A stretch of 64,000 nucleotides of DNA from Thermodesulfobacteriota bacterium (GCA_049322315.1 JBMORF010000082.1:128141-192140), one strand, 5' to 3'. Shown: positions 1,342-36,389, numbered from the stretch's first letter. Numbers and translations are program-made. The notes: generated by a model from the sequence alone, not told the origin.

Positions 1342-4300
1342 TCAACTCATAACCTCCTCAATCTCTCCCTCAATATCCAGATAGGCCTCCCGGAGCTTAT
1401 CCGTCATCTCCTGGGAGGCGTTCCACATACCCCGGTTAATCGCCTCCAGGAGCTTGTCCAGGATGTTTTGCAGGGCATAAGGATTCACCTCTTTCAGCCA
1501 CTTTTGCATTTCGGGGTCGAGGGCGTATTTATCGGCGAACCGTTCGTACATGAAGTCGTCGACGACTTCCGCGGTGGCGTCCCAACCTAAAACCACGTCC
1601 ATCATTTTGGATAAATCCCCGGCGCCTTTATAGCCGTGGCGCTTCAACCCCTCGATCCATTTGGGATTGAGCAGCCGGGAGCGAAAAACATGCTTGGCCT
1701 CTTCGAAGGTGGTGCGCATCTTGACCCGCTTGGGATCACTGGCGTCCCCCATCAGGGCGAAGGGCAGCTCTCCCCGGACCGCCTTCACCGCCACGATCAA
1801 GCCGCCGTAATAATTGTAATAATCGGTGCAGGAGAACATGTCGTACTCCCGGGAATCTTCATTTTTCACGGTCACGTCCATGCGGGACAGCAGGCGGCGG
1901 AAAGTCTCCGGCTTCTGCTTGCCGTAACTCTCCTGGCCGTAGGCATGGGAGGAATAGCGGATATAATTGTTGGCCAGGTCTTCTTGGGTTTGCCAGGCCT
2001 TGGCCTCGATCAATTCGGCCACGCCGGCCCCGTAGGTCCCCGGCGGACAGCCGAAGACCCGGAAAGTCGCCTCCCGGAAGGCCTCCTCGGAACTCCTGCC
2101 ATCCCGAAGATATTCTTCAATATCCTGCAATACATGCCGCCGGATCATGTTGGTCTCCAAGGGATCATCGAAGACCGCCAGCAGTTGCACCGCCTTATCG
2201 ATTAGCTCCACCAGGTTGGGGAAAGAATCCCGGAAAAACCCGGAAATTCGCGGCACTACATCGATGCGCGGCCGCCCCAATTCGGATTGGGGAATGATTT
2301 CCACCCCCCGCACATTGCCGCTACCCGGCTGCCAAACCGGCTTGACGCCCATCAGGTAGAGAATTTCCGCCAGATCGTCCCCCTTGGAGCGCATGGTGGG
2401 GCCACCCCAGAGTATGATGCCCACACTCTCGGGATACTTGCCGGTATCGTTCAAATAACGCTCCAACAAGGCGTCCCCCAGGCGCTGGCCCACCTCCCAG
2501 GCAGCGGGGCTGGGAATCTTCTGGGGGTCCACGGAGTAAAAATTCTTGCCGGTGGGAAGAATATCGGCCTGTCCCCGGGTGGGGGCCCCGGACGGCCCCG
2601 GCTCCACAAAGCCGCCCTCCAGGGCGTTTAAGGCCGCGTCGATTTCTTCAGTGGCCCGGCGGATATTGGGCACCAATTTCTGGCAGATGTAGTCCAACAC
2701 CGCGGCGACACCGGCGTGGGGTTGGCCGAGCGCCGCGGCGATCATCTCCTGATGGTCGGCCTGGTAATCATTCTCCGCCAACCGGCGCGCCAATTCCAGG
2801 GCCTGCTCATGGGCCTGGCGAATCAACTGTCCCCCGGTTTTCCCCTGGAAGCCGGGCAGAACCTTGCCCTTATTCTCCACCAGAACATCATAATCAAACC
2901 CCAGGGCCGCCACGATGGATTCCCGCAAGGAAGGCACGTCGCCATTGGCCAACCGGGTGAGCTGCACCACAAACTCTTCCAGGCGTTTGCCTGCCGGATA
3001 AGTGCCCAGGGTGTGCAAGCCATCGCTGATCATGGTGTCGGCGACGTCCTCCAGGTAGGCGTGCAACTTTTGCAGAAAACCATCGAAATCCTGCATGGCC
3101 TCGGCTTCGGAAATTTCCAGGTCCTTGTCCAGGTCCGCCTGGGTCACCGCCTCCCAGATCATGGGGCGGATGAGGGCCAGCTTGCCGGGATCTTCCCGCT
3201 TGGCGTCATCGTAATCCCGGAGATGATTCTCCACCTTGGCCAGGTCTTCGTATAAATCGGCGTTGGTAAAAGCCGGAGTCAGGTGATCGATGATGCAGCA
3301 GTAACTGCGCCGCTTGGCCTGGGTGCCTTCGCTGGGATCATTGATGATATAGGGATAGACGTTGGGCAGGTCCATGATGGCCAGGTCGGGGTAACACTCT
3401 TCCGAGAGTCCCAGGGCCTTGCCCGGCAGCCATTCCAGGGAGCCGTGCTTGCCCACGTGAATCACCGCGTCGGCCTTAAAGACGTGCTTCAGCCAGCGGT
3501 ATTTCATCAGGTAATGATGGGGCGGCGAGAGATACAGATCGTGGATAATGGCGTCGGCGTTCTCCAAATAGCCCCGGGGCGGCTGCATGGTGATGAAGAC
3601 GTTGCCGTTAGTAAAACCCGCGAAGTTTAACTCGCCGTTATGCACAAACAGGTCTCCCGGCGGCGGACCCCAGTCTCCGGTCATCTTGGTCCGGGTGGCC
3701 TCCGGCAGGGCTGCATGCCAGGGCAGGTAGTCGTCCGGTCCGGCTTTGGCCAAGGCCCGGTCCGCCATTTTTTCCGGCGTCAGCCAACGCCGGTCGTAGG
3801 TCATCTGCGCCAGCACTTCCTCGGCCATGGCGTCGCCGCTGTCATAAAAGCGTTCCACCCGGTAGCCCCGGTCCGCCATCCTCTCCAACAGCAGCTTGAC
3901 GCTGGCGAAGCTGTCCAACCCCGCGGCGCAGCCGATGCGGTCGTTGCGAGGCGGATAATGATGATAGATAATACCAATCCTCTTCTCCGCGTTCGGTTTC
4001 CGGCGGAGTCTGGCCCAATTGAGAGACAGCGACACCAGCCGCTCCACCCGGTCGGGGATGGGAACCTGCTTGGCCAGCAGCGCGCCGGTAATGGGGTCGT
4101 GTTGTTCTTCTTCCCGGGTGGCCACCGGCACGTTGATCAGCGCGCCGTCGAACTCCGGCTGGGCGGCGCAAAAGGAGACCTCCATGGTGGACATCCCCTG
4201 CCAGCTTTCCTGCCATTGCCGGTAAGGGGAAAAACTGGTCATCGCCTGGATGAAAGGCACGTTCAGCTTGGGCAACAGCTTTTTATACTCCTCCTTGACA

Positions 4301-5112
4301 ATGGTCAGGGAAAACATCAGGGGATTGATCAACACGTCGATACGGGGCCGGCCCTGGTCCAGGAAAAATCGGTCCACGATATAATCCGCCCCCTGGTTCC
4401 CCAGGGTTTTGTCGGGATAACGGATATGAAAGACCGGCAGGACATTGGCCCCCTGTCTTTCTATTTCCCGGATGATGGCGTCGATGTACTGCAAGTTCTG
4501 GTTAACCCAATAATTTTGGTAAAACCATAAGCCCACGGTGAGCTTCCGGGGATCGACCTTGGCGGCCAGATACTCCTCCAAATCGGGGACCGTGGCATAA
4601 TCCGGATGGTAAACGCCTTCCTGGAGGACCTTCTCCGGCAAAACCAGGGGTTCCGCCTCTCCAAAGAGAAGGTTATTGATATAAATCAGCATTTGCAGAA
4701 AATTCTGCGGGCCGCCAAAAGTCAGGTAACGGTTCAGGGTATCCCAGATGCCGTTCTCGAAGCCGTCGGCATATTTCTTGGCCGCGAAGAGGGCCTCTTC
4801 GTCGCCGCCTATGGGCTGCACATGAAAATGGGGGGCTTTTTCCCCGGAGGACCGCCTCTCCTCTAAAGCGGCCACCAAGGGCTCAAAGGCCGGGCAGGAG
4901 GCCTCGCCGCCGTGCAAGGTGATGATGATGATCTCCGCGGCCAGGGCCTCCTTGACAAAGGCGTTTTGCCGGGATTCGTCAAAAAGTTGGCTGCGGGTCC
5001 GGGCGGTAATTTCCAGATTGCCGCCGCTTTCCCGGAAGCGGACCACCGCCTGGCTCAAAATGGGAATTTCATTGGCAGTGGCGCTGAAGTAGGCTAAACG
5101 GTAGGGTTGCAT
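1342..5112 (-). CDS. cobN: CobN / Mg-chelatase H family large chelatase subunit (cobaltochelatase CobN-like), 1256 aa
   Basis: Track ORF 1342..5265. The likely start is ATG 5112 (MQPYRLAYFSATANE...), which overlaps the stop of the upstream radical-SAM gene. Length and sequence are typical of CobN (e.g. VGKHGSLEWLPGK, GRPRIDVVPRISGFFRD). It lies next to a ChlI/D-type ATPase gene. Confidence 0.9.
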   Translation of the reverse strand: MQPYRLAYFSATANEIPILSQAVVRFRESGGNLEITARTRSQLFDESRQNAFVKEALAAEIIIITLHGGEASCPAFEPLVAALEERRSSGEKAPHFHVQPIGGDEEALFAAKKYADGFENGIWDTLNRYLTFGGPQNFLQMLIYINNLLFGEAEPLVLPEKVLQEGVYHPDYATVPDLEEYLAAKVDPRKLTVGLWFYQNYWVNQNLQYIDAIIREIERQGANVLPVFHIRYPDKTLGNQGADYIVDRFFLDQGRPRIDVLINPLMFSLTIVKEEYKKLLPKLNVPFIQAMTSFSPYRQWQESWQGMSTMEVSFCAAQPEFDGALINVPVATREEEQHDPITGALLAKQVPIPDRVERLVSLSLNWARLRRKPNAEKRIGIIYHHYPPRNDRIGCAAGLDSFASVKLLLERMADRGYRVERFYDSGDAMAEEVLAQMTYDRRWLTPEKMADRALAKAGPDDYLPWHAALPEATRTKMTGDWGPPPGDLFVHNGELNFAGFTNGNVFITMQPPRGYLENADAIIHDLYLSPPHHYLMKYRWLKHVFKADAVIHVGKHGSLEWLPGKALGLSEECYPDLAIMDLPNVYPYIINDPSEGTQAKRRSYCCIIDHLTPAFTNADLYEDLAKVENHLRDYDDAKREDPGKLALIRPMIWEAVTQADLDKDLEISEAEAMQDFDGFLQKLHAYLEDVADTMISDGLHTLGTYPAGKRLEEFVVQLTRLANGDVPSLRESIVAALGFDYDVLVENKGKVLPGFQGKTGGQLIRQAHEQALELARRLAENDYQADHQEMIAAALGQPHAGVAAVLDYICQKLVPNIRRATEEIDAALNALEGGFVEPGPSGAPTRGQADILPTGKNFYSVDPQKIPSPAAWEVGQRLGDALLERYLNDTGKYPESVGIILWGGPTMRSKGDDLAEILYLMGVKPVWQPGSGNVRGVEIIPQSELGRPRIDVVPRISGFFRDSFPNLVELIDKAVQLLAVFDDPLETNMIRRHVLQDIEEYLRDGRSSEEAFREATFRVFGCPPGTYGAGVAELIEAKAWQTQEDLANNYIRYSSHAYGQESYGKQKPETFRRLLSRMDVTVKNEDSREYDMFSCTDYYNYYGGLIVAVKAVRGELPFALMGDASDPKRVKMRTTFEEAKHVFRSRLLNPKWIEGLKRHGYKGAGDLSKMMDVVLGWDATAEVVDDFMYERFADKYALDPEMQKWLKEVNPYALQNILDKLLEAINRGMWNASQEMTDKLREAYLDIEGEIEEVMS

Positions 5113-6173
5113 GACTGATTCTCTCCCTCGGTGATATTGGACAAGGAATGATAATGGGGGCGTTTCTGCTGCATGTAGGCCCAGATGGCCCGGTAGAGAT
5201 GGCAAGCAAGCCCTGACTGCTGGTAATCGTTGTAGAACAGACGGCTGGGGCAATCGCCGGGACAAAAATTATGGAGTGGGCATGATTCGCAGTCGGCGTC
5301 GGGTCGGCGGCGCCAGCCCCCAAGTTTCAATTTTTCCCCGGCCAGGTCCTCTACGGTGCCGGCGTAAAAACGGGAATCACCGATGGTTTGGCCACAAGGG
5401 TAAACGCTGCCGTCCGGATGCGCCGCCAGGCTTTCGCCCCGGCAGGCGTGGCAGAAATCCCGGGATTGCCGCCGGCGCCAGGCCTCTTCCAGTTTATCGA
5501 GTTCCCGCAGTTGCAGGGGGATGGGCCGCCTTTTATTGATGAGTTCCAGGGTGTGGAGAAGTTCGGAAACACCGATCTGTAAAGACTTGGCCGGGGCCGG
5601 GGCGACGCCGTTTGCCCGCGCGGCCCCTTTATCGATCAATAAATCCAGGCCGAGACCCCGGGCCTGGGAAAAGCCGCCTAAAAGCAGCGCCAATCCCTCC
5701 AGGCGGCCGACATTCTGGGCGGTCACCACCGTGGTGACCCGGAATTCAATCCTATTTTCCTCCAATTGCCGCAGGCCCGCGAAGGTCTGTGGAAACCCAC
5801 CCCTTTGCGCCTCATGCACGGCAGGCGAGCCGTCCAGACTGACGCCCACCTGAATACGGTATTGCTTGATGAGGCGGATGAGCTGAGCATCGATGCACGT
5901 GCCGTTAGTTTGCAGCCCCAGGGTAGCCGGCAAGCCCGCCCCCCGCACCCGGGCGGCGGTATAGGCGATCAAATCCGGCTTGAGCGTCGGTTCGCCGCCG
6001 CTTAACTGCACGTGAAAGGGTTGACCGGAAGCTTCGGCCAAGCTGATGGCCCGGTCGATGATTCCGGGGGACATCACGTGCGGCGCTGCCGTGGGCGGGC
6101 GATAGCAATAGCGGCACTGCAGATTGCAGTCATCCGTGAGCCACAAGATCAAATAGCGAATCGTCGGCTTCAT
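5094..6173 (-). CDS. Radical SAM enzyme with a C-terminal SPASM-type auxiliary Cys cluster region
   Basis: N-terminal CX3CX2C motif (LTDDCNLQCRYCY). C-terminal Cys-rich segment CHACRGES..YPCGQ..CESCPLHNFCPGDCPSR. First gene after the cobalamin riboswitch. Its last 19 nt overlap the cobN start. Confidence 0.85.
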   Translation of the reverse strand: MKPTIRYLILWLTDDCNLQCRYCYRPPTAAPHVMSPGIIDRAISLAEASGQPFHVQLSGGEPTLKPDLIAYTAARVRGAGLPATLGLQTNGTCIDAQLIRLIKQYRIQVGVSLDGSPAVHEAQRGGFPQTFAGLRQLEENRIEFRVTTVVTAQNVGRLEGLALLLGGFSQARGLGLDLLIDKGAARANGVAPAPAKSLQIGVSELLHTLELINKRRPIPLQLRELDKLEEAWRRRQSRDFCHACRGESLAAHPDGSVYPCGQTIGDSRFYAGTVEDLAGEKLKLGGWRRRPDADCESCPLHNFCPGDCPSRLFYNDYQQSGLACHLYRAIWAYMQQKRPHYHSLSNITEGENQSCNPTV

Positions 6174-6659: not shown

Positions 6660-6837
6660 TATAATTTTTTCCCTGGCGCAGTTTTTAGGCCGGCAAGGAA
6701 AAATGAAGGAGGAGCAGGATAGCTGGAATGGCCAGGAAAAAGCAGGGAGCAACGCCCCGTCTGTTAATCAGTTAAAAATTATGCTAATCTGGGGTCGGGG
6801 TGTTTTTGCTTCACCCCTGAGATTGCCCGAGGTTTCC

Positions 6838-8577
6838 ATGAGCATTCGCACTCATTTAATCCTGGCCTTTTTAGGGATCATTCTGCTGCTGGCTTTGGGC
6901 GGCTTGTTGGTGGCCGACCGGATGGCGGAGAGATCAAAGGCGGATACCATAATCTTTGCCGAAGCCTTGGTTAAAAAAATCGAATCCGCCAATTACCGGC
7001 TGAGTAAACAGGTTTTGACCAAATATGGCGAATTTATTGTCCAGGACAAGGCCGAGATGGTGGCCAGGGAGATCTCCGACTTCCTGGCGGGCCAAAAAAC
7101 TTATGATTATGCCACACTTCGCCAGGATAACCGGCTCCGGGAAACTGCCGTTCAAAATATTTATACCCCGGAAGGCAAGGCCGGTTATACGATTCTTTAT
7201 GATAAAAATGGGGAGAACATCTTTCATCCCGATCGGCAGGTGGAGGGCCAAAATTATAAAAAATGGTCAGATACATACCCGGAAGTGTGGGAGGCCGTGA
7301 AAGCGGCAATTGCTCATAAAAGGTCCACCAGGTACCTAACCTTCTTTGATCAACAAAACCGCGAAAGGAAGCGTTTTGCCGCCACCGTGCAAATCTCCGG
7401 GACCCCATTTGTGGTGGCCGCGGTGGTTAATATCGACGAGTTTTTTTTCCCCACCCAGGAGAAAATCAAGCAGGCCAGCCAGGAAATTCTGGACCAGGCC
7501 AGAAAAACCATTGGGTCCCAAGCGGCGGCGGTGCAGCGAAAATTTGAAATAGTCGGCCTTTTCAGCCTGATAGCCTTATGTCTCCTGGGAGTATTATCCG
7601 GACTCTTCCTGGCTGACCGCCTCTCCCAACCTTTAATGAAACTGGGAGACTATGCCAAGAAATTGCCCCACCAAGACTTTTCATCTCCGCCTGATCCGGA
7701 GTCCCTGATCCCCCGGCGATACTTGAAGTATAACAATGAGGTGGGTTACCTGGCGAAGTCCCTGGATTTTATGGAAGCCGACCTGAGGGAACATATCCGG
7801 GAATTGGTCAAAACCACTGCGGCCAAGGAGAGGATCGAAAGCGAATTGCTCATCGCCCGGGAGATACAGATGAGCATCCTGCCCAAGATTTTTCCTCCCT
7901 TTCCCCACCGCCGGGATTTCGACATCTACGCCCTCATCAAGCCGGCCAAAGAAGTGGGAGGTGATTTCTATGACTTCTTTCTCCTGGATGATCAGCATTT
8001 CTGCTTCGTTATCGGCGACGTCTCCGATAAGGGGGTGCCGGCCTCCCTCTACATGGCGGTGACCAAGACCCTCATCAAAGCCATGGCCCAGCATAGATAC
8101 CTCCCGGGCGAGATTCTTACCCGGGTGAACCGCGAGCTGGTCTCGGGCAATACCACTTCCATGTTTGTCACGGTGTTTCTGGGGACCTTGGACACCCTCA
8201 GCGGTCGGGTGCTCTATGCCAACGGCGGCCACAATCCCCCTTTGATGATCCGGAACCGGGCCGGCGTGGATTTCCTGGCCCCCTTCGGGGATGCCCTGGT
8301 GGGGGGCATGGAAGGTTTATCCTATAAAACCGGAGAACTGTTCCTGGCTCCCGGTGAGGCCCTGTTCCTTTACACCGACGGGGTGACCGAGGCCAGCAAC
8401 CGGGAGGAAGAGCTATTCTCAGAAGAGCGGCTCCTGCAAAGCTTGCAGGATCTGCCTGGGGCCTCTTCCCGGGCAACGATCCAGGCGGTCAAAGCCAGGA
8501 TTGATGAGTTTGTGGCTGGGGCGCCCCAGGCGGATGATATTACCATGTTGATGATCCGTTTTCAGGGCAGGGGCTAA
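6838..8577 (+). CDS. Membrane sensor PP2C/SpoIIE-family serine phosphatase (RsbU-like): TM, periplasmic sensor domain, TM, HAMP, PP2C
   Basis: Track ORF 6703..8577. The likely start is ATG 6838 (MSIRTHLILAFLGIILLLALGG). There is a second TM segment, then a HAMP-like segment, then PP2C motifs GGDFYDF, GDVSDKGVPASLYMAVTKT, LYTDGVTEA and ADDITMLMIRF. Confidence 0.85.
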   Translation: MSIRTHLILAFLGIILLLALGGLLVADRMAERSKADTIIFAEALVKKIESANYRLSKQVLTKYGEFIVQDKAEMVAREISDFLAGQKTYDYATLRQDNRLRETAVQNIYTPEGKAGYTILYDKNGENIFHPDRQVEGQNYKKWSDTYPEVWEAVKAAIAHKRSTRYLTFFDQQNRERKRFAATVQISGTPFVVAAVVNIDEFFFPTQEKIKQASQEILDQARKTIGSQAAAVQRKFEIVGLFSLIALCLLGVLSGLFLADRLSQPLMKLGDYAKKLPHQDFSSPPDPESLIPRRYLKYNNEVGYLAKSLDFMEADLREHIRELVKTTAAKERIESELLIAREIQMSILPKIFPPFPHRRDFDIYALIKPAKEVGGDFYDFFLLDDQHFCFVIGDVSDKGVPASLYMAVTKTLIKAMAQHRYLPGEILTRVNRELVSGNTTSMFVTVFLGTLDTLSGRVLYANGGHNPPLMIRNRAGVDFLAPFGDALVGGMEGLSYKTGELFLAPGEALFLYTDGVTEASNREEELFSEERLLQSLQDLPGASSRATIQAVKARIDEFVAGAPQADDITMLMIRFQGRG

Positions 8578-8610
8578 ACGTGGGCTTTGTTAAAATCTGA
8601 GGGGGGAAAG

Positions 8611-10323
8611 ATGGCCAAGAAGCCGGCAAACCTAGTCTTTGGGGTCGATGAAAATCCGCCTTGGGGGATCACTCTGCTCCAGGGACTGCAGCATGTCTTC
8701 ATCATAACGGTCTACTTTATTTTTCCGGTCATCGTCATCCACGCCTTGGGCGGCACTGACGACCAGGCTGCCACCATGGTCAAGATGTCCATGATCGGCA
8801 TTGGCATCACTACCATATTGCAGGTTCTGCGCAAAGGTCCCATGGGCTCCGGCTACCTTGCCCCCTCAGGCAACGGACCCGCTTACCTATCCGCCACCTT
8901 GCTGGCCGCCAAGTCCGGGGGCCTATCCTTGATCTGCGGGATGACCGTCGTCGCCGGTCTCTTTGAGGTCCTAATCTCCCGCATCGTCAGCCGCCTGCGA
9001 GTCCTGTTTCCGCCGGAAGTCGCCGGACTGGTGGTGACCATGGTGGGCATCGAACTCATCCCCCTGGGCATCGAGCGCTTTTTCGGCCTGGGTCCTGGCG
9101 GGACCGGGATCAGTCGCAACGATTTTCTGGTGGCCCTGATCACCTATGTCTGTATGGTGGGCATCAACACCTGGGGCAAAGGCATGCTGCGCCTCTATCC
9201 CATCCTCATCGGCATGGGGGTAGGCTACCTGAGCGCCTTCTTCTGGGGTATCCTCACTCCCGCCAAACTGAGCAGCATCAGCGCCGCGCCCTGGATCTCC
9301 TTCCCCCGGTTCGCCAGCTTCGGCTGGTCCTTCGATATGGCACTGTTGCTGCCGTTCTTAATTGCCACGCTCTGTTCCACCCTCAAAGACATTGGCGATC
9401 TGACCACCTGCCAAAAAATCAACGACAGCGAGTGGAAGCGCTCCGATATGAAGTCCATCGGCAACGGTATCCTAGCAGATGCTGTGGGTGATATCCTCTC
9501 CGGGGTGATCGGTGGCCTGGGCCAGACCACTTCTTCCAGCAATATCGGTTTCTCTCTGGCTACCGGGGTCACCAGCCGCCGCATCGCCTATGCTATCGGG
9601 GGCCTTCTCTGCTTTCTGGCCTTTTTTCCCAAGTTGGCGCAGTTCTTTGTGATCATGCCCCGGCCGGTCATGGGGGCCATTCTGATCTTTGTGACCAACT
9701 TCATGGTTCTGGCGGGTTTTCAGATCATCACCACCCGGATGCTGGACACCCGGAAGATCTTTGTCATCGGCACCTCTTTTATCTTTGGGATTTCGGTGTT
9801 CCTCTACCCCCAGGCCTATCGCCAGGTCCCCGCTTTAGTGCAACCCATTTTTAGTTCCGCCCTCTCCCTGGCCACCATTAGCGTAGTCATCCTGAATCTT
9901 ATCTTTCGCCTGGGCATTGCCAAACGCCAGGGGCTCACCATCACCCCCGAGGATCGTGATTTTGCTGAGAAACTCACCACCTTTATGCAGAGGCAGGGGG
10001 CGGCCTGGGGCGCCCGGCGGGAGGTGATCCAACTGGCGGAGTCGGCCATGATAGAGTTTATGGAGGCCCTGGTGGGTCTGAAGCTGGCCGGCGGCCCCAT
10101 CGAGGTGGAGGCGAAATTTGACGAGATGAGCCTGGAGGTGAGCTTCCACTATCAGGGACGCCTGCTGGATTTCCATCCCCAGCTCCCCAGCCAGGCCGAC
10201 TTATTGGAGGACGAGGAAGCAGTCTACCGGCTCTCCAGCTTCATCATCAAGAATCATGTAGACCGCATCAAAACCGGGGAAGAGAACGGCCGTTGTTTGG
10301 TGGTTTTTCACTTCGACCATTAA
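8611..10323 (+). CDS. NCS2 (xanthine/uracil/vitamin C permease) family transporter with a roughly 130-aa cytoplasmic C-terminal RsbW-like (degenerate GHKL) domain
   Basis: ATG 8611 is preceded by GAGGGGGG. The N-terminal motif WGITLLQGLQHVF and a multi-TM body are typical of NCS2. The tail (9925..10320) aligns by eye with the adjacent RsbW-like kinase. Confidence 0.75.
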   Translation: MAKKPANLVFGVDENPPWGITLLQGLQHVFIITVYFIFPVIVIHALGGTDDQAATMVKMSMIGIGITTILQVLRKGPMGSGYLAPSGNGPAYLSATLLAAKSGGLSLICGMTVVAGLFEVLISRIVSRLRVLFPPEVAGLVVTMVGIELIPLGIERFFGLGPGGTGISRNDFLVALITYVCMVGINTWGKGMLRLYPILIGMGVGYLSAFFWGILTPAKLSSISAAPWISFPRFASFGWSFDMALLLPFLIATLCSTLKDIGDLTTCQKINDSEWKRSDMKSIGNGILADAVGDILSGVIGGLGQTTSSSNIGFSLATGVTSRRIAYAIGGLLCFLAFFPKLAQFFVIMPRPVMGAILIFVTNFMVLAGFQIITTRMLDTRKIFVIGTSFIFGISVFLYPQAYRQVPALVQPIFSSALSLATISVVILNLIFRLGIAKRQGLTITPEDRDFAEKLTTFMQRQGAAWGARREVIQLAESAMIEFMEALVGLKLAGGPIEVEAKFDEMSLEVSFHYQGRLLDFHPQLPSQADLLEDEEAVYRLSSFIIKNHVDRIKTGEENGRCLVVFHFDH

Positions 10324-10327
10324 AGGA

Positions 10328-10753
10328 TCAGGACACGGCAGCAGGCGGGGTCAGGTCAAAGCAGAAGGTCACCTGGTTGACGCCGGATTCATAGTGATAG
10401 TCGATCTCATCGGCCAGTTGCCGGGCCAAGTGGATTCCCAGCCCCCCGATGGACCGCTGTTCCAAGTCCGGACCCAGATTCGGTGGCCCCTTTTCCAGGA
10501 GATTGAAGCGTCGGCCCCAATCCCGCAAAGACAGGCAAAATCGGTGTTGATCCTCCAGGAAGAAACTTACCTCCACCTCACCCGGCCCCCGGGGGTAGGC
10601 GTAGCGGATAATGTTGGTCAGCAGCTCTTCCAGGACCAATTCGATCTCCCATCTTCGCTCCCGGGGCAGGCCCAATTGCTCCAGTTCCGGCGCCAGAAAA
10701 GACCGGAAGGCCTCCAGAGATTCCATAACTGCCGGTAATCGCAGCCGGTTCAT
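10328..10753 (-). CDS. Anti-sigma-factor-type serine kinase (RsbW/SpoIIAB-like, HATPase_c_2)
   Basis: 141 aa. N-box-like EIELVLEELLTNIIRYAY, G-box SIGGLGIHLARQLADEIDY. Its start overlaps the stop of the STAS gene by 4 nt (10750..10753). Confidence 0.85.
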   Translation of the reverse strand: MNRLRLPAVMESLEAFRSFLAPELEQLGLPRERRWEIELVLEELLTNIIRYAYPRGPGEVEVSFFLEDQHRFCLSLRDWGRRFNLLEKGPPNLGPDLEQRSIGGLGIHLARQLADEIDYHYESGVNQVTFCFDLTPPAAVS

Positions 10754-11088
10754 GGTTTGATCTGCGCGAGGGCTTCATCCAGGGAGGGATACATGGGAAA
10801 CATGCTGTAGATGCCGGCAATATTGAAGACCTTTGCCACCATGCCGGCAATTCTGGAAAATACCAGGCTGCCATCCCTGGCCTTTAATTGTTTGGCCACG
10901 AACAGAATTGTCCTGATGCCGGCACTGCTGATGTAGTCAAGTTCACCCAGATCCACCGCGAAGTATGATTCTCCCGTCTCCAGCCATTTCAGGCATTTCT
11001 GCTCAAACTCAGGAGCGGTCGAGGCATCCAACCGTCCTTTGAGTTTGAAAACCACTACTTCCCCTTGTTTTTCCGTGATCAATTCCAT
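10750..11088 (-). CDS. STAS-domain anti-sigma-factor antagonist (RsbV/SpoIIAA-like)
   Basis: 112 aa. VVVFKLKGRLDASTAPEFEQ...DLGELDYISSAGIRTIL carries the conserved phosphorylatable Ser context (DYISSAG). Confidence 0.9.
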   Translation of the reverse strand: MELITEKQGEVVVFKLKGRLDASTAPEFEQKCLKWLETGESYFAVDLGELDYISSAGIRTILFVAKQLKARDGSLVFSRIAGMVAKVFNIAGIYSMFPMYPSLDEALAQIKP

Positions 11089-11711: not shown

Positions 11712-13901
11712 TCACTCCATGAGCAATGGCGCAATGATGGGGGCGATCATGGACAGAGTGGCCTTGATTTTGGCCACAAAGCCATCGGCATCGCCTTTCA
11801 GAGAACTTTGAAAGGGGTTCTTAGTGGGGAAATCCTTGGACCAGGTTTCCCCGGTCACATAGACATTACCGCGGGTATCCACGGCAATGCCGTTGCCCCA
11901 ATCGTCGTCGCTGCCTCCCAGGAGATAAAAAAATCCTATTTTGCTCCCAGCGGGGAATAATTTGGCCACATAGGCATTCGCGGTATAAATTCCCGGGGAG
12001 CCGGCCACCGGGGAGGAGGACCACCCCGTAATATAGGCTGCGCCAAAACGGTCCAGGGCGATGCCATAACCTTCATCATCATAATTTTCCCCCAGGTAGG
12101 TGGAGTAACTCAGGGTGCTGCCGACTTCATCAAGTTTAGCCGCAAAGGCGTCGGATACTCCTTTCCTGGCCGCCTGAGCCGGATTCTTTAGAGGGAAATC
12201 GGCGGAGTAGGTAGTGCCGGTCACACATGCATTACCGTTATTGTCTACAGCAATGCCGTAACCTGCATCCTCATTGGCCCCTCCCAGGAAAGTGGAATAA
12301 ACCACGGCCCCGATGGCATTAAGCTTGGCCACAAAGGCGTCGCCGGCCCCCGCAAATGTCCCTTGAAGGGCGCCCGCGGTGGTAATGAAATCAGGAGAAG
12401 TGGTCTCTCCGGTCACATAAGCATTGCCATTCTTATCTACCCCAACGCCATAACTCGAGTCATCATTGGAGCCGGTAAAAATAGTGCGATAGATCAGGCC
12501 GCCGACGGGATCAAAACGGGCAATAAAGGCATTATAAAGGGAATAAATATTAAAGGTCTCTCCGGTGACACAGGCAAAGCCGTTTCGGTCCACGGCGATG
12601 GCATAGGCGGCATCTTCATAGTTATCTCCCAAGTAAGTGGAATAAACCAGGCCATTGCCCGCGGCGTTGAGCTTGGTGATAAAGGCGTCAGTGGTACCCT
12701 TGCGGCTGGATTGATAGGGGTTCATGGTAGGGAAGGAACTAGAATCGGTATAACCAGTCACATAGGCATTACCCTCTTCATCCACGGCGATGCCGTAACC
12801 CTCCTCCGAACCCTCTCCCCCCAGGTAGGTGGAGTAGACCAGGGCGTTGCCTGCGGGGTTGAGCTTGGTGACAAAAACCTCAGCAGTCCCTGAAAAATAA
12901 GAATCATAAGCCCCCAGAGTGGGAAAATCGTTGGAGAAGGTGCAGCCGGTGATGTAGGCATTGCCGCTGCTATCCACCGCGATGGCGTTGCCCACATCGT
13001 AAGCGCTTCCCCCCAGATAGGTGGAGTACAGTACTTCTGGATCGATGATCAGGGGGAGTGTTTTATCATAAGAAGTCACCGCAAAGCTGTAACTGGGAGA
13101 GTCCTTTCCCGGGGCCAGTTTGAAGCCCCCCTGCCGGGGTACCCGCACGCCGTTGATCACCTGGTAGATAAAAGGTTTTTTCTGCGCCAGGGAGCCGCCG
13201 TCGGGCAGATGGGCGATCAGGTCTCCTGCCTGGGTGACTTCCAGGCCTTTAATGCCCTGGTACTGAAATTTCACCCGGCCCGGATCAGCCCCGGGTTTGA
13301 CCATGACGTCGTATTCCAGGTGGCGCCCCTTGCCGTAAAATTTCAGATCGATCCCGGGGTAGGCGTCCAGGTAGGCCACCGCTCCATAAGTGGGAATGCC
13401 GGTGCGCCATTTTTTGGGGTCCGCGCCCCGGAGATAGTTGACTTGCCCGGCCTGGAGGCCTACCCCGGAGATCTTCACTCCGGGAGACATGCCCACCGGG
13501 GTCAGGTTAAAGTGCAGCGGCAGGGTATGTGCAGCAGGTATCCGGGCCAAGCGGGCTTCCCTTTGCGCCTTACCCTTCCGGGGGCCGCGGCCCGTAGCCC
13601 CAACCGGGTTAGCTGCCTTAAGCAAGGAAAACTGGAGGCCAGCCGGAGTGAAATAAACGGCCCGGCCCTGGCCTTGGGCATAATATTTGATCCGCCCCTC
13701 CACCTGGCCCCGGTTTTCAACGAAATAAAGGGGGAGGCGGCTGCCAGGCTCTCCGGGGCCGGGCCTTTTAAGCCGTTCCGGCGCCTGGCCGGCTCCGGCC
13801 GGGGCCGGAGTGGGAGTGAAGGATATCATGCCGCCGATGAGGGTCGCCAACAGGCTCCAAAAGATTAACGGTGAACGGGGGAACCGCCTTCCTCCTGCCA
13901 T
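11712..13901 (-). CDS. Secreted SBBP (beta-propeller) repeat protein
   Basis: N-terminal signal-like segment. At least 8 repeats of the pattern YSTYLGG..D.G.GIAVD..GNAYVTG.T.S.DFPT, typical of SBBP repeats. Last gene of the RHS operon. Confidence 0.85.
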   Translation of the reverse strand: MAGGRRFPRSPLIFWSLLATLIGGMISFTPTPAPAGAGQAPERLKRPGPGEPGSRLPLYFVENRGQVEGRIKYYAQGQGRAVYFTPAGLQFSLLKAANPVGATGRGPRKGKAQREARLARIPAAHTLPLHFNLTPVGMSPGVKISGVGLQAGQVNYLRGADPKKWRTGIPTYGAVAYLDAYPGIDLKFYGKGRHLEYDVMVKPGADPGRVKFQYQGIKGLEVTQAGDLIAHLPDGGSLAQKKPFIYQVINGVRVPRQGGFKLAPGKDSPSYSFAVTSYDKTLPLIIDPEVLYSTYLGGSAYDVGNAIAVDSSGNAYITGCTFSNDFPTLGAYDSYFSGTAEVFVTKLNPAGNALVYSTYLGGEGSEEGYGIAVDEEGNAYVTGYTDSSSFPTMNPYQSSRKGTTDAFITKLNAAGNGLVYSTYLGDNYEDAAYAIAVDRNGFACVTGETFNIYSLYNAFIARFDPVGGLIYRTIFTGSNDDSSYGVGVDKNGNAYVTGETTSPDFITTAGALQGTFAGAGDAFVAKLNAIGAVVYSTFLGGANEDAGYGIAVDNNGNACVTGTTYSADFPLKNPAQAARKGVSDAFAAKLDEVGSTLSYSTYLGENYDDEGYGIALDRFGAAYITGWSSSPVAGSPGIYTANAYVAKLFPAGSKIGFFYLLGGSDDDWGNGIAVDTRGNVYVTGETWSKDFPTKNPFQSSLKGDADGFVAKIKATLSMIAPIIAPLLME

Positions 13902-13928: not shown

Positions 13929-14609
13929 TTAGGGCTGGTGTTTCTCCACTCCCGGCTCCGGGTCGGAAGTGTAAATCTTCTCTTGATCTTTCAGAATCTT
14001 GGGATGCGGAGGTCCGGTTGTTTCCTTTTGCTCCTTAGGCGTCCCGGCTGGACTGGCGGTCCCGGCCTTTGCCCCCGCGGCCGCTGTGGTCCGGCGGATA
14101 AAGTCCACCCTGGCTTCCAGTTCCTGGGCCACCTCTTTTTGATACTCGTCTTTTTCCTCCGGGCTGAAGGCCCCCTGATTAAGGAAATTTTGGATCTCCC
14201 CCTGCAGGTCCTCCAGTTCACGGTCCGAACCGGCCAGCCTGATCCTGGTGAGCAGCGCGGGCCAGGCCGGGGCTGCGGGGATGCCGCCCCCGGTGATGGT
14301 CAGCGACTCCTGGACCGGGGCAACCGCGACGGGAGTAGATGAGGCGGCAGAGGCGCTGACCGCTGCCCCGGCCTGGGGAGAAGCCGCAACGCTGGAAGAG
14401 GCCTGCACCTGCTGGGTCAGCCGGTTCCCCACCGCATCATAGGTGTACTGAATGACGGTGCCGTCGCTATACTGCACCTTGATGAGACGGTTGAGGTCGT
14501 CGTAAGTGTATTGGGCGGTGGCGGAAAGAGATTGAGCTGTAAATAGCAAGATGGTAAATAGCACCAACATATATGGTTGCATCAATTTTGTAGGCTTATG
14601 CTTAATCAT
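13929..14609 (-). CDS. Small exported protein with a short YD-repeat segment, an Ala/Ser/Pro-rich linker and a charged C-terminal region; function unknown
   Basis: 226 aa. Signal/TM-like N-terminus (MLVLFTILLFTAQSLSATAQ) followed by YTYDDLNRLIKVQYSDGTVIQYTYDAVGNRLT. It starts 18 nt after the RHS stop, which is the position normally taken by an immunity gene. Confidence 0.6.
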   Translation of the reverse strand: MIKHKPTKLMQPYMLVLFTILLFTAQSLSATAQYTYDDLNRLIKVQYSDGTVIQYTYDAVGNRLTQQVQASSSVAASPQAGAAVSASAASSTPVAVAPVQESLTITGGGIPAAPAWPALLTRIRLAGSDRELEDLQGEIQNFLNQGAFSPEEKDEYQKEVAQELEARVDFIRRTTAAAGAKAGTASPAGTPKEQKETTGPPHPKILKDQEKIYTSDPEPGVEKHQP

Positions 14610-14627: not shown

Positions 14628-17600
14628 TTATTTGGGGCAGACACCTTTCTTTGTTAAGTCTCTAAAGGCATTCAAAAACTCAGGATCGGTATATGCTTGC
14701 AGCAAGTCATCTGCAGCACTAACTACATCTAAAGTTCCCAATAAGTTGTCTATATTTTCAACCCATAAGTTAGGCGAAAGTCTCCCACCTACTAACCCAA
14801 GGCTAAGATCAGCTGCAGTTGCTAGATTTTGCGCAGTATAGCTGTTGGGAAAAGCGAGGTCCGCAACATCATTAAAAAACGATCCTTTACTAGCTGGGTT
14901 TTTTTCAAACAGAGCCGCCCAAAGATTTGTCGCATTTACAGTTACACCATAAGATCCTGTAAAAACTAATGCAGTGCCAGCCACAAGGCCTACTCCAGTT
15001 ACTGCTGTTCCCGTAGCTATAATAGCACCACCAGCAACTGCAAAAGCATTCCCAACAAGACCACCAAAAGATCTGCCAGCCTGCTCCCAATTAACCAAGC
15101 CTACAGGATCTATGTATTCGACCGGATTATTTTTCACAAATGCATATAAATTCTTCCCACCGGTCTCCTTCAGTGGGTCTCTGGTCATCCACCTTCCCAC
15201 TGCTGATGCATAAAAACGATACCCATAATAGGACATTCCGGTCTGGTCATCATAAGGTTTGGTGGAAAACTGCATGAGCTGGCTCAGGCTGCCGCTCTGG
15301 GCCCGGCGGCGGCCGAAGGGGTCGTACTGGTAGGCCGCAGACACTCCCCCGGCGCTGTTTAACACCGCGGAGACATTCCCTTTGCCATCATAAAGATAAG
15401 AGTAATTTGCGCCTTCCTGGTTGAGATGGAGCAGGCCGCCGATGCCGCCGCCTTTATGGTGTCCCCAGGTGTATTCCCGGGTAATATTGTTGTCCGCGTC
15501 CCGCTCCTGCACCAGTAGGGCGCCGTCATAGACATAGCGGCTGTCGGATACCAGACTGCTGTTGCGGTACTTTTTCACCTGTACCAGCATCTCGCCAAGG
15601 TAGTAGTACTCCGTCTTGTTCCAGGCGCCGTCAGCGCCGGTATGGGTGAGGGATTGCAGACGATTTTCGGGATCGTAAAGCGCGGTAAAGGCGTAGCCGT
15701 CCGGGGTGTAGCCCTTTTCCAGGTTGCCGTCCCGGTCGTGGGCAAAGGTCTTGGTTCCGGGGTCGGTGGCGCTGAGGAGTTGGTTGACGTTGTTGTAGGC
15801 ATACTGGACTGCCGCATTCTGGTAGGGAGTAGGAACTACTGGTTCATTGGCGGTTTCCGCGGCCCGGAGATCCTGGGCGTTGAAAGTGTAGGAGTAGCTG
15901 TTAATGAGCACTCCTGCGATATTTTTAGTGGTCATTTGGGTCAGGCGTTGTAAGGCATCATATTGAAAAGTGGTCCTGGCGCCGTTGGGCCGGGTGAGGG
16001 ACCGCACCAGGGGATTGACCCCGGTATAGGTATAGTAGTAGAGGTCGCCGCCGGCGTTAACTGCAGTGAGCCGGTTATACTCGTCATAGGCGTAGGCCGC
16101 GGCCTGGCCCTTTTCCCGGGTCATGGCGATCCTGCGGCCCAGGGCGTCGTATTGATAAGTAATTTTGTCATTGTCCCAGGGACCGTCCACGCTCACCAGC
16201 CGGGAATTGGCGTCATACTCGTAGGTGTAAGTTCCCACAGCATTGCTTGAAGAGAGCAGCCGGTTGTATTTATCATAAGTATAATTAATCCAGGGCAAAG
16301 TGTCTTGGTAGTAATAGGTGTTGTAATAAATCCGGGTGAGATTGTTGTTGGCGTCGTAATTATAATAAGTGGTAATGCCCCGGGCATTCCGTTTGGAGGC
16401 CACCAGACCATAATTGTTATATGTGTATAACTCGTATTCGCCGTCCGCATAGATCTTTTTCACCAGGCGGTCACCGGCGTCATATTTGAAGCGGGTGACA
16501 TTGCCCTTGGGGTCCACCAGTTGGGTGCGGTTGCCGTTGGCGTCATAAGCAAACCGGGTCATGCCGCTGGCGGGATCGGTGACCGCGGTGAGGCGGTTGA
16601 GCTTGTCATAGGTATAAAAGGTGGCCTGGCCCGAACGCTCGGTGACTTGGTCCAGCAGTCTGGGGCAGCAGGTGGAATACTGGAAACTCCTAAATTTGCC
16701 GTCGGGGTAGGTGATCCGGGTCGCCTGGTCCAGGTCGTTATAATCATAGGTCACCGTCAGGCCGGTGGCATCGGTGTAGGTCCGCACCCGGTCCAGGGCG
16801 TCGTAGGTATAGCTCTGCACCCGCTGGGCCGCGCGGGTGCGGTGGCGCCCCTGCCTCACTTCCACCAGCCGGTGGTAGGCATCATAGAGATAATTGGTGA
16901 CGGCGCCCGCCGCATCGGTGCTGGAAATCAGTTGCCCATAATCATTATAAGCGAAGGTGGTGACATTTCCCAGACGGTCGGTAAGGGAGGTGACCTCATG
17001 GGTATTGTTATAGGTCAGTTTTATTTGCCCCAGGTCATCCTGGGTGGAGATGAGATCGACATTATTGCTGGCATAGGTCATATTGGCCGTATAAGATAAG
17101 GAAGCGGTGATGGAAGTAGGCAGACTCATATTATTATAAGTGTAACTTTTATAGCCATGATAATCTGAAACATAAGTACGGTTCCCGTAGCTATCATAAC
17201 CAAAATAATAGCCATCACTTAAGGGTAATCTCTTAGAAGCGATATATCCTTGATAGTTACTAGTTATATAATAATATCTTGTCTTTGGTGTATTAACATT
17301 GCTTGCCTCGTAACTGACATAATTAACGTAATTATTAGGACTGACGTACCAGCCATAAATCAAATTGCCGTCATAATGATACTCTTCCTTATTACCAAAA
17401 GGATCGGTGACGGTAACCCGGAAATCTTCCCACATAGTACCGCCGGGCGCTGGGTAACCGTTACTGCCGTTAGGAATGCCGTCCGCCGGTTCAGTATAGA
17501 TATTCCAGACACCCCGGTCCTTGGCGATGCTGGTCATAAAAATGTCTTGATCATAGGTAAAACTCGCCGCATAGTTCCCCATATCGGTGATTTTAACGAG

Positions 17601-34877: not shown

Positions 34878-36389
34878 ATGCCTGCATTAATCCAAACTGA
34901 GCTAAATCTGCCGGCAAATGAGGCAATGCAGCGACTGGCGCAGGATTATGTGCGGGGTCTGGCGCAATTGGCCGGTTTCCCGGAAGACCAGGCGGAACCC
35001 CTCGCCCTGGCGGTTTGGGAGGCCTGCCGGAATGCCATCGAGCACGCCTTTGCGGAGGAGGAACCCGGTACGCTGAAGCTGGCGGGAGAGGTTACCCCCG
35101 TAGCCTTAACCCTGTCTCTTGGCGATAAGGGCCTGCCATACTACCAAACTAAGGGTTTTAGATCGCCCGCACAGAGCCCTGGAAGCCCAGCCCAAGGTTT
35201 TCAGGGATTGCCCTCTCTCCAAGAATGCTTCGACGAAGTGAGCTGGATCTACCATGGGGTGGGGGGCAATGAATTGCGCCTCACCAAAAACCTGACGGAA
35301 GCCTTCCCCCTGCCGGCCCCGCAGCCCGAGACTCCCGGCCCCTGGGCCGAAGCAGTTACCCCGGCGGGGCCCGACGTCTACACCATCCGGCGGTTGCGTC
35401 CGGGAGACGGCATCCAGGTGGCCCGGTTACTCTACCGAGTCTACGGCTACCATTACTTTGAGGACTACTATTATCCGGACCGGCTGGACCACGAGGTCGC
35501 CGTCGGCCGGCAGGTGGGGGTGGTGGCCGTGGCCGACGACGGTGAATTTGCCGGCCTGGAAATAGTGGCCCGGTGGGAACCGGGTCCTCTGGGGAGGTGG
35601 TGCGCTTTGGCAGTGGCGCCGGCCCACCGAGGCCGGGGGCTGAGCCAGCGCCTCTCTGATCGCCTCCAGGAAGAGATCAGGCCGATGGGTCTGATCGGCG
35701 CGTTTGGCGACCCCCTCGCCATCCACACCATCAGCCAGCAGATTTGCGAGAGCCTGGGCTTCCATGTCACCGGCATCCAACTCCTGGAAGTGCTGACGCA
35801 TTTGCAGACCCTCCGGGGCCGGAACGGGCCCGGCAGGCCATGGGAAAGGGAAGTGGAGCCGGGCCTCCAGCGGGTCACCACGGTCTTTTATTTTCAATAT
35901 TTGGCGCCGCCGGAGCCAAAGGCTGTCGGCGCACCGCCCCAGCACCGGGAGTTGCTGGCGAAGATCTATGAGAACCTGGGAGTGAAGGTGCAATTTTTGA
36001 AACCGCGCCGACCCATGGGGGCCGGGGAATTAAAAGTTCACTATGACCAGACCCTCGAGGTCGGCACCATCCAGGTGAACCGCGTCGGCCGCGATACCCT
36101 GCCGGAGATTTCCCAGGCTCGGCGGGACCTGTGCGACCTGACGGGGGCCAAGGTGGTGGGCCTTTTACTGCCGCTGGCGCAAGGCGGGACGCCTTATCTG
36201 TGCGAGGCCGCCGAAGCGGAGGGCTTCTTTTTCTCCGGCGTCCTGCCCCACTTCGCCCTGGACGGGGATTTCCTGCGGCTCCAGTACCTCAATACCGACT
36301 TGGACCCGGAGCGCATCCACCTTTATTCTCCTTTTGCCAAGGAACTTCTGGCCTATATCCTCCAGGAAAAGGAGCGGGTGGGGCAATAA
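34878..36389 (+). CDS. Fusion protein: RsbW-like HATPase (anti-sigma kinase-type) N-domain, GNAT acetyltransferase domain, and a roughly 200-aa unknown C-domain
   Basis: 503 aa. The N-terminus LALAVWEACRNAIEHAF..GTLKLAGEV is RsbW-like. The GNAT core is IRRLRPGDGIQVARLL...ALAVAPAHRGRGLSQRL. Confidence 0.7.
   Translation: MPALIQTELNLPANEAMQRLAQDYVRGLAQLAGFPEDQAEPLALAVWEACRNAIEHAFAEEEPGTLKLAGEVTPVALTLSLGDKGLPYYQTKGFRSPAQSPGSPAQGFQGLPSLQECFDEVSWIYHGVGGNELRLTKNLTEAFPLPAPQPETPGPWAEAVTPAGPDVYTIRRLRPGDGIQVARLLYRVYGYHYFEDYYYPDRLDHEVAVGRQVGVVAVADDGEFAGLEIVARWEPGPLGRWCALAVAPAHRGRGLSQRLSDRLQEEIRPMGLIGAFGDPLAIHTISQQICESLGFHVTGIQLLEVLTHLQTLRGRNGPGRPWEREVEPGLQRVTTVFYFQYLAPPEPKAVGAPPQHRELLAKIYENLGVKVQFLKPRRPMGAGELKVHYDQTLEVGTIQVNRVGRDTLPEISQARRDLCDLTGAKVVGLLLPLAQGGTPYLCEAAEAEGFFFSGVLPHFALDGDFLRLQYLNTDLDPERIHLYSPFAKELLAYILQEKERVGQ

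Follow-up and report, generated by a model that had tools for sequence, protein, structure and literature searches.

Partner-switching genes beside an NCS2-fold permease with an RsbW-like pseudokinase tail: a possible module for the gating of transport

Background

What does a partner-switching module control when no sigma factor is encoded beside it? This question is raised by a stretch of 64,000 nucleotides from a Thermodesulfobacteriota bacterium (GCA_049322315.1 JBMORF010000082.1:128141-192140; the whole stretch is called the window here), in which positions 6838-11088 encode a membrane PP2C phosphatase, an NCS2-fold permease, an RsbW-type serine kinase and a STAS protein. Partner-switching circuits are textbook regulators of sigma factors, and the usual partner of a PP2C-STAS pair is of the RsbW type. 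To our knowledge only a few non-transcriptional outputs of such circuits have been recorded, namely a diguanylate cyclase, a type III secretion system and a glycosyltransferase. It was observed 25 years ago that anti-sigma antagonists contain a STAS domain and that SLC26 transporters carry one at their C-terminus, with no known functional connection between the two. An initial annotation of the window had proposed that the module may gate transport rather than transcription, with the permease and its RsbW-like tail as the only candidate target.

In this study, profile searches, structure prediction and a comparative analysis of related loci were employed to examine this proposal. Within the reach of sequence analysis, structure prediction and comparative genomics, the transport-gating interpretation is supported, and we consider it somewhat better than an even bet that the output of the partner-switching circuit is the permease itself. 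Evenly balanced, in our judgement, is the more specific proposal in which transport is gated by the docking in trans of a free STAS protein, itself phospho-switchable, on an RsbW-fold pseudo-anti-sigma domain that follows transmembrane helix 14 (TM14) of a 7+7 elevator transporter; permeases of this kind would form a multi-phylum class regulated post-translationally, reciprocal to the SLC26 transporters with their STAS domain in cis.

Results and discussion

Organization of the locus

Four open reading frames (ORFs) were found at 6838-11088 by ORF listing and profile searches. The genes of the PP2C membrane sensor phosphatase (6838-8577) and the permease lie on the plus strand and those of the RsbW-type kinase (10328-10753) and the STAS protein (10750-11088) on the minus strand. 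The permease and kinase genes are convergent, and 4 nucleotides (10324-10327) can be read between their stops; the stop of the STAS gene and the start of the kinase gene overlap, by their coordinates, in a 4-nucleotide ATGA (10750-10753), and the kinase gene is, as judged from the sequence, translationally coupled to the STAS gene. The four genes, their strands, the overlap and the convergent gap all agree with the initial annotation, and the profile searches that it had proposed returned Xan_ur_permease, SpoIIE, STAS and HATPase_c_2 above their cut-offs for the four window proteins.

Two starts deserve comment. The permease ORF as listed (8587-10323) begins at TTG 8587, and the ATG at 8611, which has a Shine-Dalgarno sequence (gaggggg) and matches the starts of homologues (MAKKP), is probably the true start. 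For the phosphatase, ATG 6838 has a GAGG Shine-Dalgarno sequence and agrees with homologue starts; the frame is also open from an upstream ATG at 6703, and a longer protein starting there is unlikely.

The permease tail is homologous to RsbW and a predicted pseudokinase

The last 136 residues of the permease (aa 443-578; 9913-10323, with residues encoded at 9913-10320) form a cytoplasmic tail that begins about 4 residues past TM14. Sequence searches with the tail gave little: no Pfam family matched even at E<=10, HATPase_c_2 included, and a sequence-profile search against PDB returned nothing meaningful, only spurious coiled-coil matches. BLASTP against the neighbouring RsbW gave 26% identity with an E-value of 0.002. 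The tail alone was modelled by AlphaFold2 (AF2) with a predicted local distance difference test (pLDDT) score of 97, and the best Foldseek match of this model in PDB was SpoIIAB (1til_E; E 1.1e-6, TM-score 0.73), other top matches being mycobacterial UsfX, RsbW of Bacillus subtilis (6m36, 6m37), SiaB (6kko) and the RsbW domain of Rv1364c. These five proteins make up most of the top 25 matches (TM-scores 0.6-0.73), and histidine kinases rank below them. When profiles were built from 98 tails and from the RsbW proteins encoded at these loci and were compared, hhalign gave a probability of 96.5% and an E-value of 7e-10 over 123 columns. The structure models thus assign to the tail, with very high confidence, the Bergerat (GHKL) alpha/beta fold in the form typical of small anti-sigma kinases, and by profile comparison the tail is homologous to RsbW. 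The RsbW-like character that the initial annotation had ascribed to the tail, and the fold similarity whose absence it had named as counting against its reading, were both borne out by these results.

The possibility that the tail is itself an active kinase was considered and rejected, as virtually every one of the 98 family members examined has substitutions at the canonical ATP-binding residues. In the N-box the Glu is kept (E490) and the Mg-binding Asn is Ala or Ser at position 494; in G1 the adenine-binding Asp is replaced by Tyr522 (94 of 98) with the Gly kept (G524); and in G2 the GGLG motif has become xRLS(G/A/S), with loss of the glycines. The tail is therefore best described as an RsbW homologue that would be unable to bind ATP canonically, i.e. 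a predicted pseudokinase. Other features of the tail are invariant: a WGAR loop, an FDE(F)NLD hairpin, the Y522-x-G524 element and a terminal His. The protein ends with LHF[D/E]H-COOH in 89 of the 98 tails, the rest being truncated, and the last residues of the window permease are HFDH (10306-10320).

To recover the family, HMMER had to be run exhaustively against 1.84 billion cluster representatives, since a word-indexed homologue search gave just 5 close fragments. The exhaustive search yielded 431 cluster representatives at E<=1e-3. Full-length relatives are about 565-600 residues long and carry the domain at the extreme C-terminus; among 155 retrieved proteins, 85 also match the NCS2 core and the remainder are mostly fragments. 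The domain was also seen outside a permease, in a 304-residue protein (P0056; locus L095, 6001-6915) that consists of a Response_reg receiver followed by the tail domain.

Permease core and substrate site

The core of the permease (8611-9912) belongs to the NCS2/SLC23 fold. Pfam Xan_ur_permease matched aa 29-408 with 203 bits (cut-off 27; E 5.5e-60) and NCBIfam NCS2_1 scored 80.9 against a cut-off of 40, while the scores for the pbuX and ncs2 TIGRFAM models were below their cut-offs. The AF2 model of the whole permease (pLDDT 93) has 14 transmembrane helices in a 7+7 arrangement, and its closest Foldseek relatives were SVCT1, UapA and UraA (E about 1e-16), followed by SLC26 members. Neither Sulfate_transp nor STAS gave a Pfam match in the window permease.

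The substrate site departs from that of known NCS2/NAT transporters. UapA E356 (UraA E241) in TM8 and UapA Q408 (UraA E290) in TM10 are the substrate-binding residues of the published structures. In a profile alignment to UapA, the TM8 Glu corresponds to Lys267 of the window permease (9385-9387, numbered from 8587), and Lys occupies this position in 114 of 137 family members. The TM10 Gln/Glu corresponds to Ser318 (9538-9540, same numbering), which is S, A, T or G across the 137 members. The rest of the TM10 signature is retained as N-I-G-F-S-L-A-T-G. Of the NCS2/NAT signature [Q/E/P]-N-x-G-x-x-x-x-T-[R/K/G], the N-x-G-x-x-x-x-T part is kept, and the permease has neither the substrate-binding residue that opens the signature nor the TM8 Glu. 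With a Lys at the position of the substrate-binding Glu, the designation of a nucleobase-type permease, as first annotated, holds for the fold and likely does not hold for the substrate: a canonical nucleobase is, on this evidence, improbable. The basic residue at this site might, speculatively, indicate an anionic substrate.

Several further observations concern the permease and its surroundings. The family has an invariant cytoplasmic motif, CQKINDxxWxR, at aa 275-285. When the region upstream of the operon was scanned with Rfam for a purine riboswitch, or any other, as a clue to the substrate, only a cobalamin riboswitch was found. At one related locus (L006) an amidohydrolase-like gene lies directly downstream of the permease gene, and at another (L009) the upstream neighbour resembles PurH, both assignments being read by eye from N-terminal sequences.

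Phosphatase, kinase and STAS protein

The phosphatase comprises TM1, an extracytoplasmic sCache_2-like domain, TM2, a HAMP-like linker and a PP2C/SpoIIE domain. The catalytic domain (aa 384-575) matched Pfam SpoIIE/PP2C with 165 bits (E 2e-48; cut-off 25), and the motifs GDFYD, GDVSDKG, TDGVTEA and DDIT, with their metal-binding aspartates intact, were seen in the translation. A weak match to SiaA was found in NCBIfam. The N-terminal region matched sCache_2 with 25.9 bits (E 1.1e-5), a domain that the initial annotation had left unmentioned in calling the protein a HAMP-PP2C phosphatase. The membrane PP2C part of that description stands, but HAMP was not detected in the window protein at E<=0.05. 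The homologous linker of the PP2C at locus L053 reached a sub-threshold 20 bits for HAMP and other PP2Cs associated with the family have a clear HAMP domain, so that its presence in the window protein is plausible.

Across the loci, the sensor modules of the PP2Cs include sCache_2, dCache_2, dCache_1-HAMP, 5TMR-LYT, a multi-transmembrane region of no recognized type and an Amt domain, and every one of them is membrane-embedded. This diversity, combined with a constant location, is consistent with a signal that enters at the phosphatase and takes effect at the membrane. The Amt domain was found in divergent members (L097, 6714-8882; also L098 and L099), in which PP2C is fused to an ammonium-transporter domain and the gene order is RsbW-STAS-permease-[Amt~PP2C]; the fusion suggests a nitrogen-status input in that lineage and hints at a nitrogen connection. 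In another set of loci (L053, 6298-8718; L034, 2059-4122; L078; L085), Cache, HAMP, PP2C and a C-terminal RsbW (HATPase_c_2) are joined in one polypeptide beside the permease. Phosphatase and kinase are thereby placed on one chain, as in regulators of the HsbR or SypE kind.

The RsbW-type kinase (141 residues; 10328-10753, minus strand) matched Pfam HATPase_c_2 with 90.8 bits (cut-off 27.4; E 9.1e-26), and its N (EELLTN), G1 (DWG) and G2 (GGLG) boxes are intact. The NCBIfam RsbW models scored it well under their cut-offs, so it is not an equivalog of the SigB-type RsbW. The single-domain STAS protein (112 residues; 10750-11088, minus strand) is of the anti-anti-sigma type, with 80 bits for Pfam STAS (E 1.3e-22) and 78 bits for TIGR00377 (cut-off 53). 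Within its motif DYIS54S55AG, YISSAG aligns with DSSG of SpoIIAA and DSTG of RsbV, and Ser54 is the predicted phosphorylatable serine. The Ser-Ser motif, in the form Y-I-S-S, is invariant in all 55 permease-linked STAS proteins, both those from loci without RsbW (31/31) and those from loci with RsbW (24/24).

Conservation of the partner-switching genes beside the permease

Full-length tail-bearing homologues were found at 14 loci in a scan of GTDB species genomes, and a metagenome scan with a tight 8-sequence alignment added 80 more. The 14 GTDB loci come from Desulfobacca-like (82% identity), Syntrophus/Syntrophaceae, Syntrophorhabdaceae, Desulfovibrionaceae, Bacteroidales/Prolixibacteraceae, Gemmatimonadota and other lineages, including a bin labelled 'Dependentiae'; members of the tail-permease family are frequent among anaerobic bacteria of sediments and digesters, e.g. 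Desulfobaccales, Syntrophales and Bacteroidales. Partner genes were mapped with hidden Markov models (HMMs) built iteratively from the window proteins, and gene content was counted at the 38 loci that have at least 3 kb on each side of the permease.

PP2C, STAS or RsbW genes occur within 3 kb of the permease at 26 of these 38 loci: all three at 14, PP2C and STAS at 9, and STAS only at 3. A Cache-PAS histidine kinase is found instead at 2 loci, and the remaining 10 have neither a partner-switching gene nor such a kinase within this distance. At the two histidine kinase loci (L084, 8732-11371; L088) the tail-permease gene is followed by a dCache_2-PAS-HisKA_2-HATPase protein, whose architecture was checked by Pfam for L084 and is assumed for L088 from a similar 881-residue protein.

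The partner genes are concentrated close to the permease. Within 3 kb (400 kb in total), 53 STAS, 55 PP2C and 29 RsbW genes were counted, against 4, 1 and 0, respectively, at 3-8 kb (372 kb in total), so that their density is 12- to 50-fold greater in the inner interval. At least six gene orders were distinguished. Besides the window type, in which PP2C-permease faces RsbW-STAS, there are STAS-PP2C-RsbW-permease, PP2C-STAS-permease, permease-PP2C-STAS and STAS-permease-PP2C, as well as two orders with fusions, permease-[PP2C~RsbW]-STAS and the Amt~PP2C order given above. The module is still present with members just 30-32% identical to the window permease. Survival of the association through gene shuffling is a classic sign of functional coupling. 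Moreover, for each of STAS, PP2C and RsbW, the distance between two proteins correlates with that between the permease cores (r 0.64-0.69), which indicates co-inheritance, the modules having co-diversified with the permease.

A separate RsbW is missing from about 40% of the module-bearing loci. At 33 loci with PP2C and/or STAS and no RsbW, several of them on short contigs, a lenient RsbW-HMM search (E<=10) found the permease tails only. The initial annotation had asked for conservation of the four-gene arrangement, and this can be affirmed in part: PP2C, STAS and often RsbW recur within 3 kb across lineages, but the exact four-gene layout is lineage-specific, and by gene content the conserved unit is permease-tail, PP2C and STAS. 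Tandem duplicated tail-permease genes were seen at three loci (L029, L035, L053), with one shared partner-switching module upstream or downstream.

Search for a sigma factor

No sigma-factor gene was present among the flanking genes or in the ORF set of the whole window, in line with the initial annotation. Phmmer probes with RpoE, SigB and SigF sequences, run with no positive control, gave zero matches in the whole window and in 94 related loci, and no other recurrent candidate target was seen across the 94+ loci either. The sigma factor, or other defined target, that belongs to an RsbU/V/W system was thus not found at the locus; a target elsewhere in the genome remains conceivable.

A proposed mechanism of transport gating

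These observations can be combined in a scheme in which the phosphatase would be switched on by a cue at its extracytoplasmic or membrane sensor and would then dephosphorylate the STAS protein at Ser54. The unphosphorylated STAS protein would dock on the pseudokinase tail, much as RsbV does on RsbW, without being phosphorylated there. The tail starts four residues after TM14 of the gate domain, and docking may alter the elevator cycle and hence the activity of the transporter. Soluble RsbW, where present, would re-phosphorylate the STAS protein and reset the switch. The reverse polarity is also conceivable, as the invariant Arg and His of the tail could equally read a phosphate. STAS-tail binding, the phospho-state in which it occurs, its effect on transport and the nature of the substrate are what we infer here. 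The strongest argument for the STAS protein as ligand of the tail, and for the permease as output, comes from the loci without RsbW, in which the tail fills the slot of the RsbW partner.

Several points weigh against this scheme. No partner-switching gene is found within 3 kb at 10 of the 38 well-flanked loci, among them L003 (CP113000.1, ORM2a), whose permease is 71% identical to that of the window; at L003, L006 and L007 no PP2C, STAS or RsbW gene occurs within 8 kb. At the loci without RsbW, no RsbW-type kinase that could act on the STAS protein was found. In mirror-tree comparisons all pairs correlate (0.42-0.64), and the partial Mantel values of 0.44 for tail-STAS, 0.42 for tail-PP2C and 0.49 for tail-RsbW do not single out STAS as the partner of the tail. 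The receiver-tail fusion (P0056/L095) adjoins a copper P-type ATPase gene and has no STAS or PP2C gene nearby. Sigma factors, moreover, are also bound by the proteins that the tail most resembles in structure, which makes a sequestered protein partner conceivable.

Alternative explanations

Among the alternatives, a role of the permease and its tail as input or scaffold keeps a modest share of the probability and is, in our view, rather unlikely. The transport state would here alter the affinity of the tail for STAS or for a sequestered regulator, e.g. a sigma factor encoded elsewhere, and the circuit would so inform transcription, or some other unlinked target, of the flux of substrate. Sequestration would suit a domain whose nearest structural relatives (SpoIIAB, UsfX and RsbW) hold sigma factors, but neither a sigma factor nor a recurrent target accompanies the permease in the 94+ loci. 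A sensory permease would also be compatible with the loci that have a Cache-PAS histidine kinase in place of the module and with the receiver-tail fusion, by which the tail domain is seen to be capable of serving as a general output or interaction module; yet the PP2Cs bear diverse sensor domains of their own, which makes a second sensor needless. The window-type loci have a complete and, from its motifs, apparently active RsbW, possibly with its own target, whereas the minimal set of PP2C, STAS and permease-tail contains no other output component.

It is improbable, although the two are homologous and share the same fold, that the tail pairs with soluble RsbW instead of STAS, in a heterodimer that recruits or inhibits the kinase at the membrane and leaves STAS to act on another target. 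RsbW and SpoIIAB are homodimers, and the mirror-tree partial correlation of tail and RsbW is as high as that of tail and STAS. NCS2 permeases are themselves dimeric (UraA, UapA), however, and two tails can homodimerise; furthermore, it is RsbW that is so frequently absent from module-bearing loci, while STAS is nearly always there.

Equally improbable, we believe, is a tail that serves as a structural domain for dimerisation or stability without signalling, its neighbours being co-located for co-expression and regulating something else. The module is lacking at a quarter of the well-flanked loci, and SLC26 STAS domains are partly needed for stability (PMC8256260). Against this, chance does not account for so strong an enrichment of three gene families beside the permease in different phyla and gene orders, and a purely structural function is at odds with a tail from the very protein family whose members bind STAS proteins. 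An ordinary RsbU-RsbV-RsbW sigma-factor system that lies beside the permease by chance is very improbable, for although none of its three canonical components is missing and all look catalytically competent from their motifs, the window has no sigma gene, its RsbW scores far under the SigB-type equivalog cut-offs and the association with the tail-permease is conserved in many lineages.

Comparison with known systems

If the permease is indeed the output, the module can be set beside several known systems. It resembles RsbU/RsbP-RsbV-RsbW and SpoIIE-SpoIIAA-SpoIIAB of Bacillus in its three protein families, namely a PP2C whose sensor is N-terminal, a STAS protein of one domain that has a phosphorylatable Ser, and a serine kinase of the GHKL type, and in the translational coupling of the STAS and kinase genes. 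Unlike them, it has no sigma factor, and its membrane permease ends in a further RsbW-fold domain that is kinase-dead; in the permease-linked modules as a group, moreover, the soluble kinase is dispensable in many lineages and the phosphatases sit in the membrane and carry Cache, 5TMR-LYT or Amt domains as sensors. In SiaABCD of Pseudomonas aeruginosa, which consists of the PP2C SiaA, the kinase SiaB, the STAS-like SiaC and the diguanylate cyclase SiaD, the unphosphorylated switch protein binds a non-sigma effector directly. The logic of phosphatase, kinase and switch is shared with the window module, and SiaB is among the structural matches of the tail (6KKO, the SiaB-SiaC structure). The effector SiaD is a cyclase without an RsbW-like docking domain, while the effector proposed here is a transporter with a docking domain of its own.

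BtrUVW, SypE/SypA and HsbR/HsbA are other non-sigma partner switches, and with HenR-All4160 of Anabaena, presented as new, partner switching has been extended to a biosynthetic enzyme (bioRxiv 10.64898/2026.04.08.717354). In these systems STAS is fused to, or acts on, an enzyme or a secretion system, and none of them is known to include a permease or a pseudokinase docking domain.

Among transporters, the window permease shares family models and the 14-helix fold with the NCS2/NAT proteins UraA, UapA, XanQ and PbuX, and differs from them in the extra 136-residue cytoplasmic tail, in Lys at the TM8 Glu and in Ser/Ala at the TM10 Gln/Glu. The 7+7 elevator fold is shared with SLC26/SulP (PMC6497670). 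SLC26/SulP proteins (SLC26Dg, BicA, prestin) have a cytoplasmic regulatory domain after TM14, the same topological position as that of the window tail. In SLC26 this domain is a STAS domain in cis, whereas in the window the STAS protein is separate and predicted to be phospho-switchable, and the transporter bears the fold of the STAS-binding partner; the core of the window permease is nearer to SLC23/NCS2 than to SLC26 and its C-terminal domain has the RsbW fold, not the STAS fold. A review of STAS-only proteins treats transporters in the SLC26 cis context alone (PMC8256260), and our literature search found no account of an NCS2 permease with an RsbW-like domain or tied to partner switching.

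Neighbouring genes in the window

The genes flanking the four-gene module encode CobN, a radical-SAM protein, an SBBP/DUF7948 protein and RHS proteins. A cobalamin riboswitch (RF00174; 6439-6627, minus strand; Rfam 119.6 bits, E 2e-30) takes up most of the 660-nucleotide gap 5' of the PP2C gene and is preceded by a near-consensus promoter-like site, TTGACA-18-TATTAT (6659-6630, minus strand). It is directed at the radical-SAM (5094-6173) and CobN (1342-5265) genes and is part of the divergent CobN operon, not of the partner-switching module. Just past the STAS gene, all on the minus strand, lie the genes of an SBBP/DUF7948 beta-propeller protein (11712-13901), a small RHS-repeat protein (13929-14609) and a 1593-residue RHS/YD-repeat protein with an N-terminal Peptidase_C39 domain (14628-19409), which together look like a polymorphic-toxin-like cluster. 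A second RsbW-type protein of the window (34878-36389, plus strand; 503 residues) has an N-terminal HATPase_c_2 domain (E 9e-13) fused to one or more GNAT acetyltransferase domains, and the partner-gene HMMs found no STAS or PP2C gene beside it.

Conclusions

The atypical Lys of the substrate site may point to an unrecognised substrate class among NCS2 permeases. If the proposed scheme is true, direct and reversible control of membrane transport would join the known outputs of partner switching. It would also offer a mechanistic and evolutionary bridge for the puzzle of a STAS domain that links anion transporters and anti-sigma antagonists: a transporter of the 7+7 fold would have recruited a STAS protein of the anti-sigma-antagonist type, and the modulation of an elevator transporter by STAS would thus become testable by means of a simple phospho-switch.

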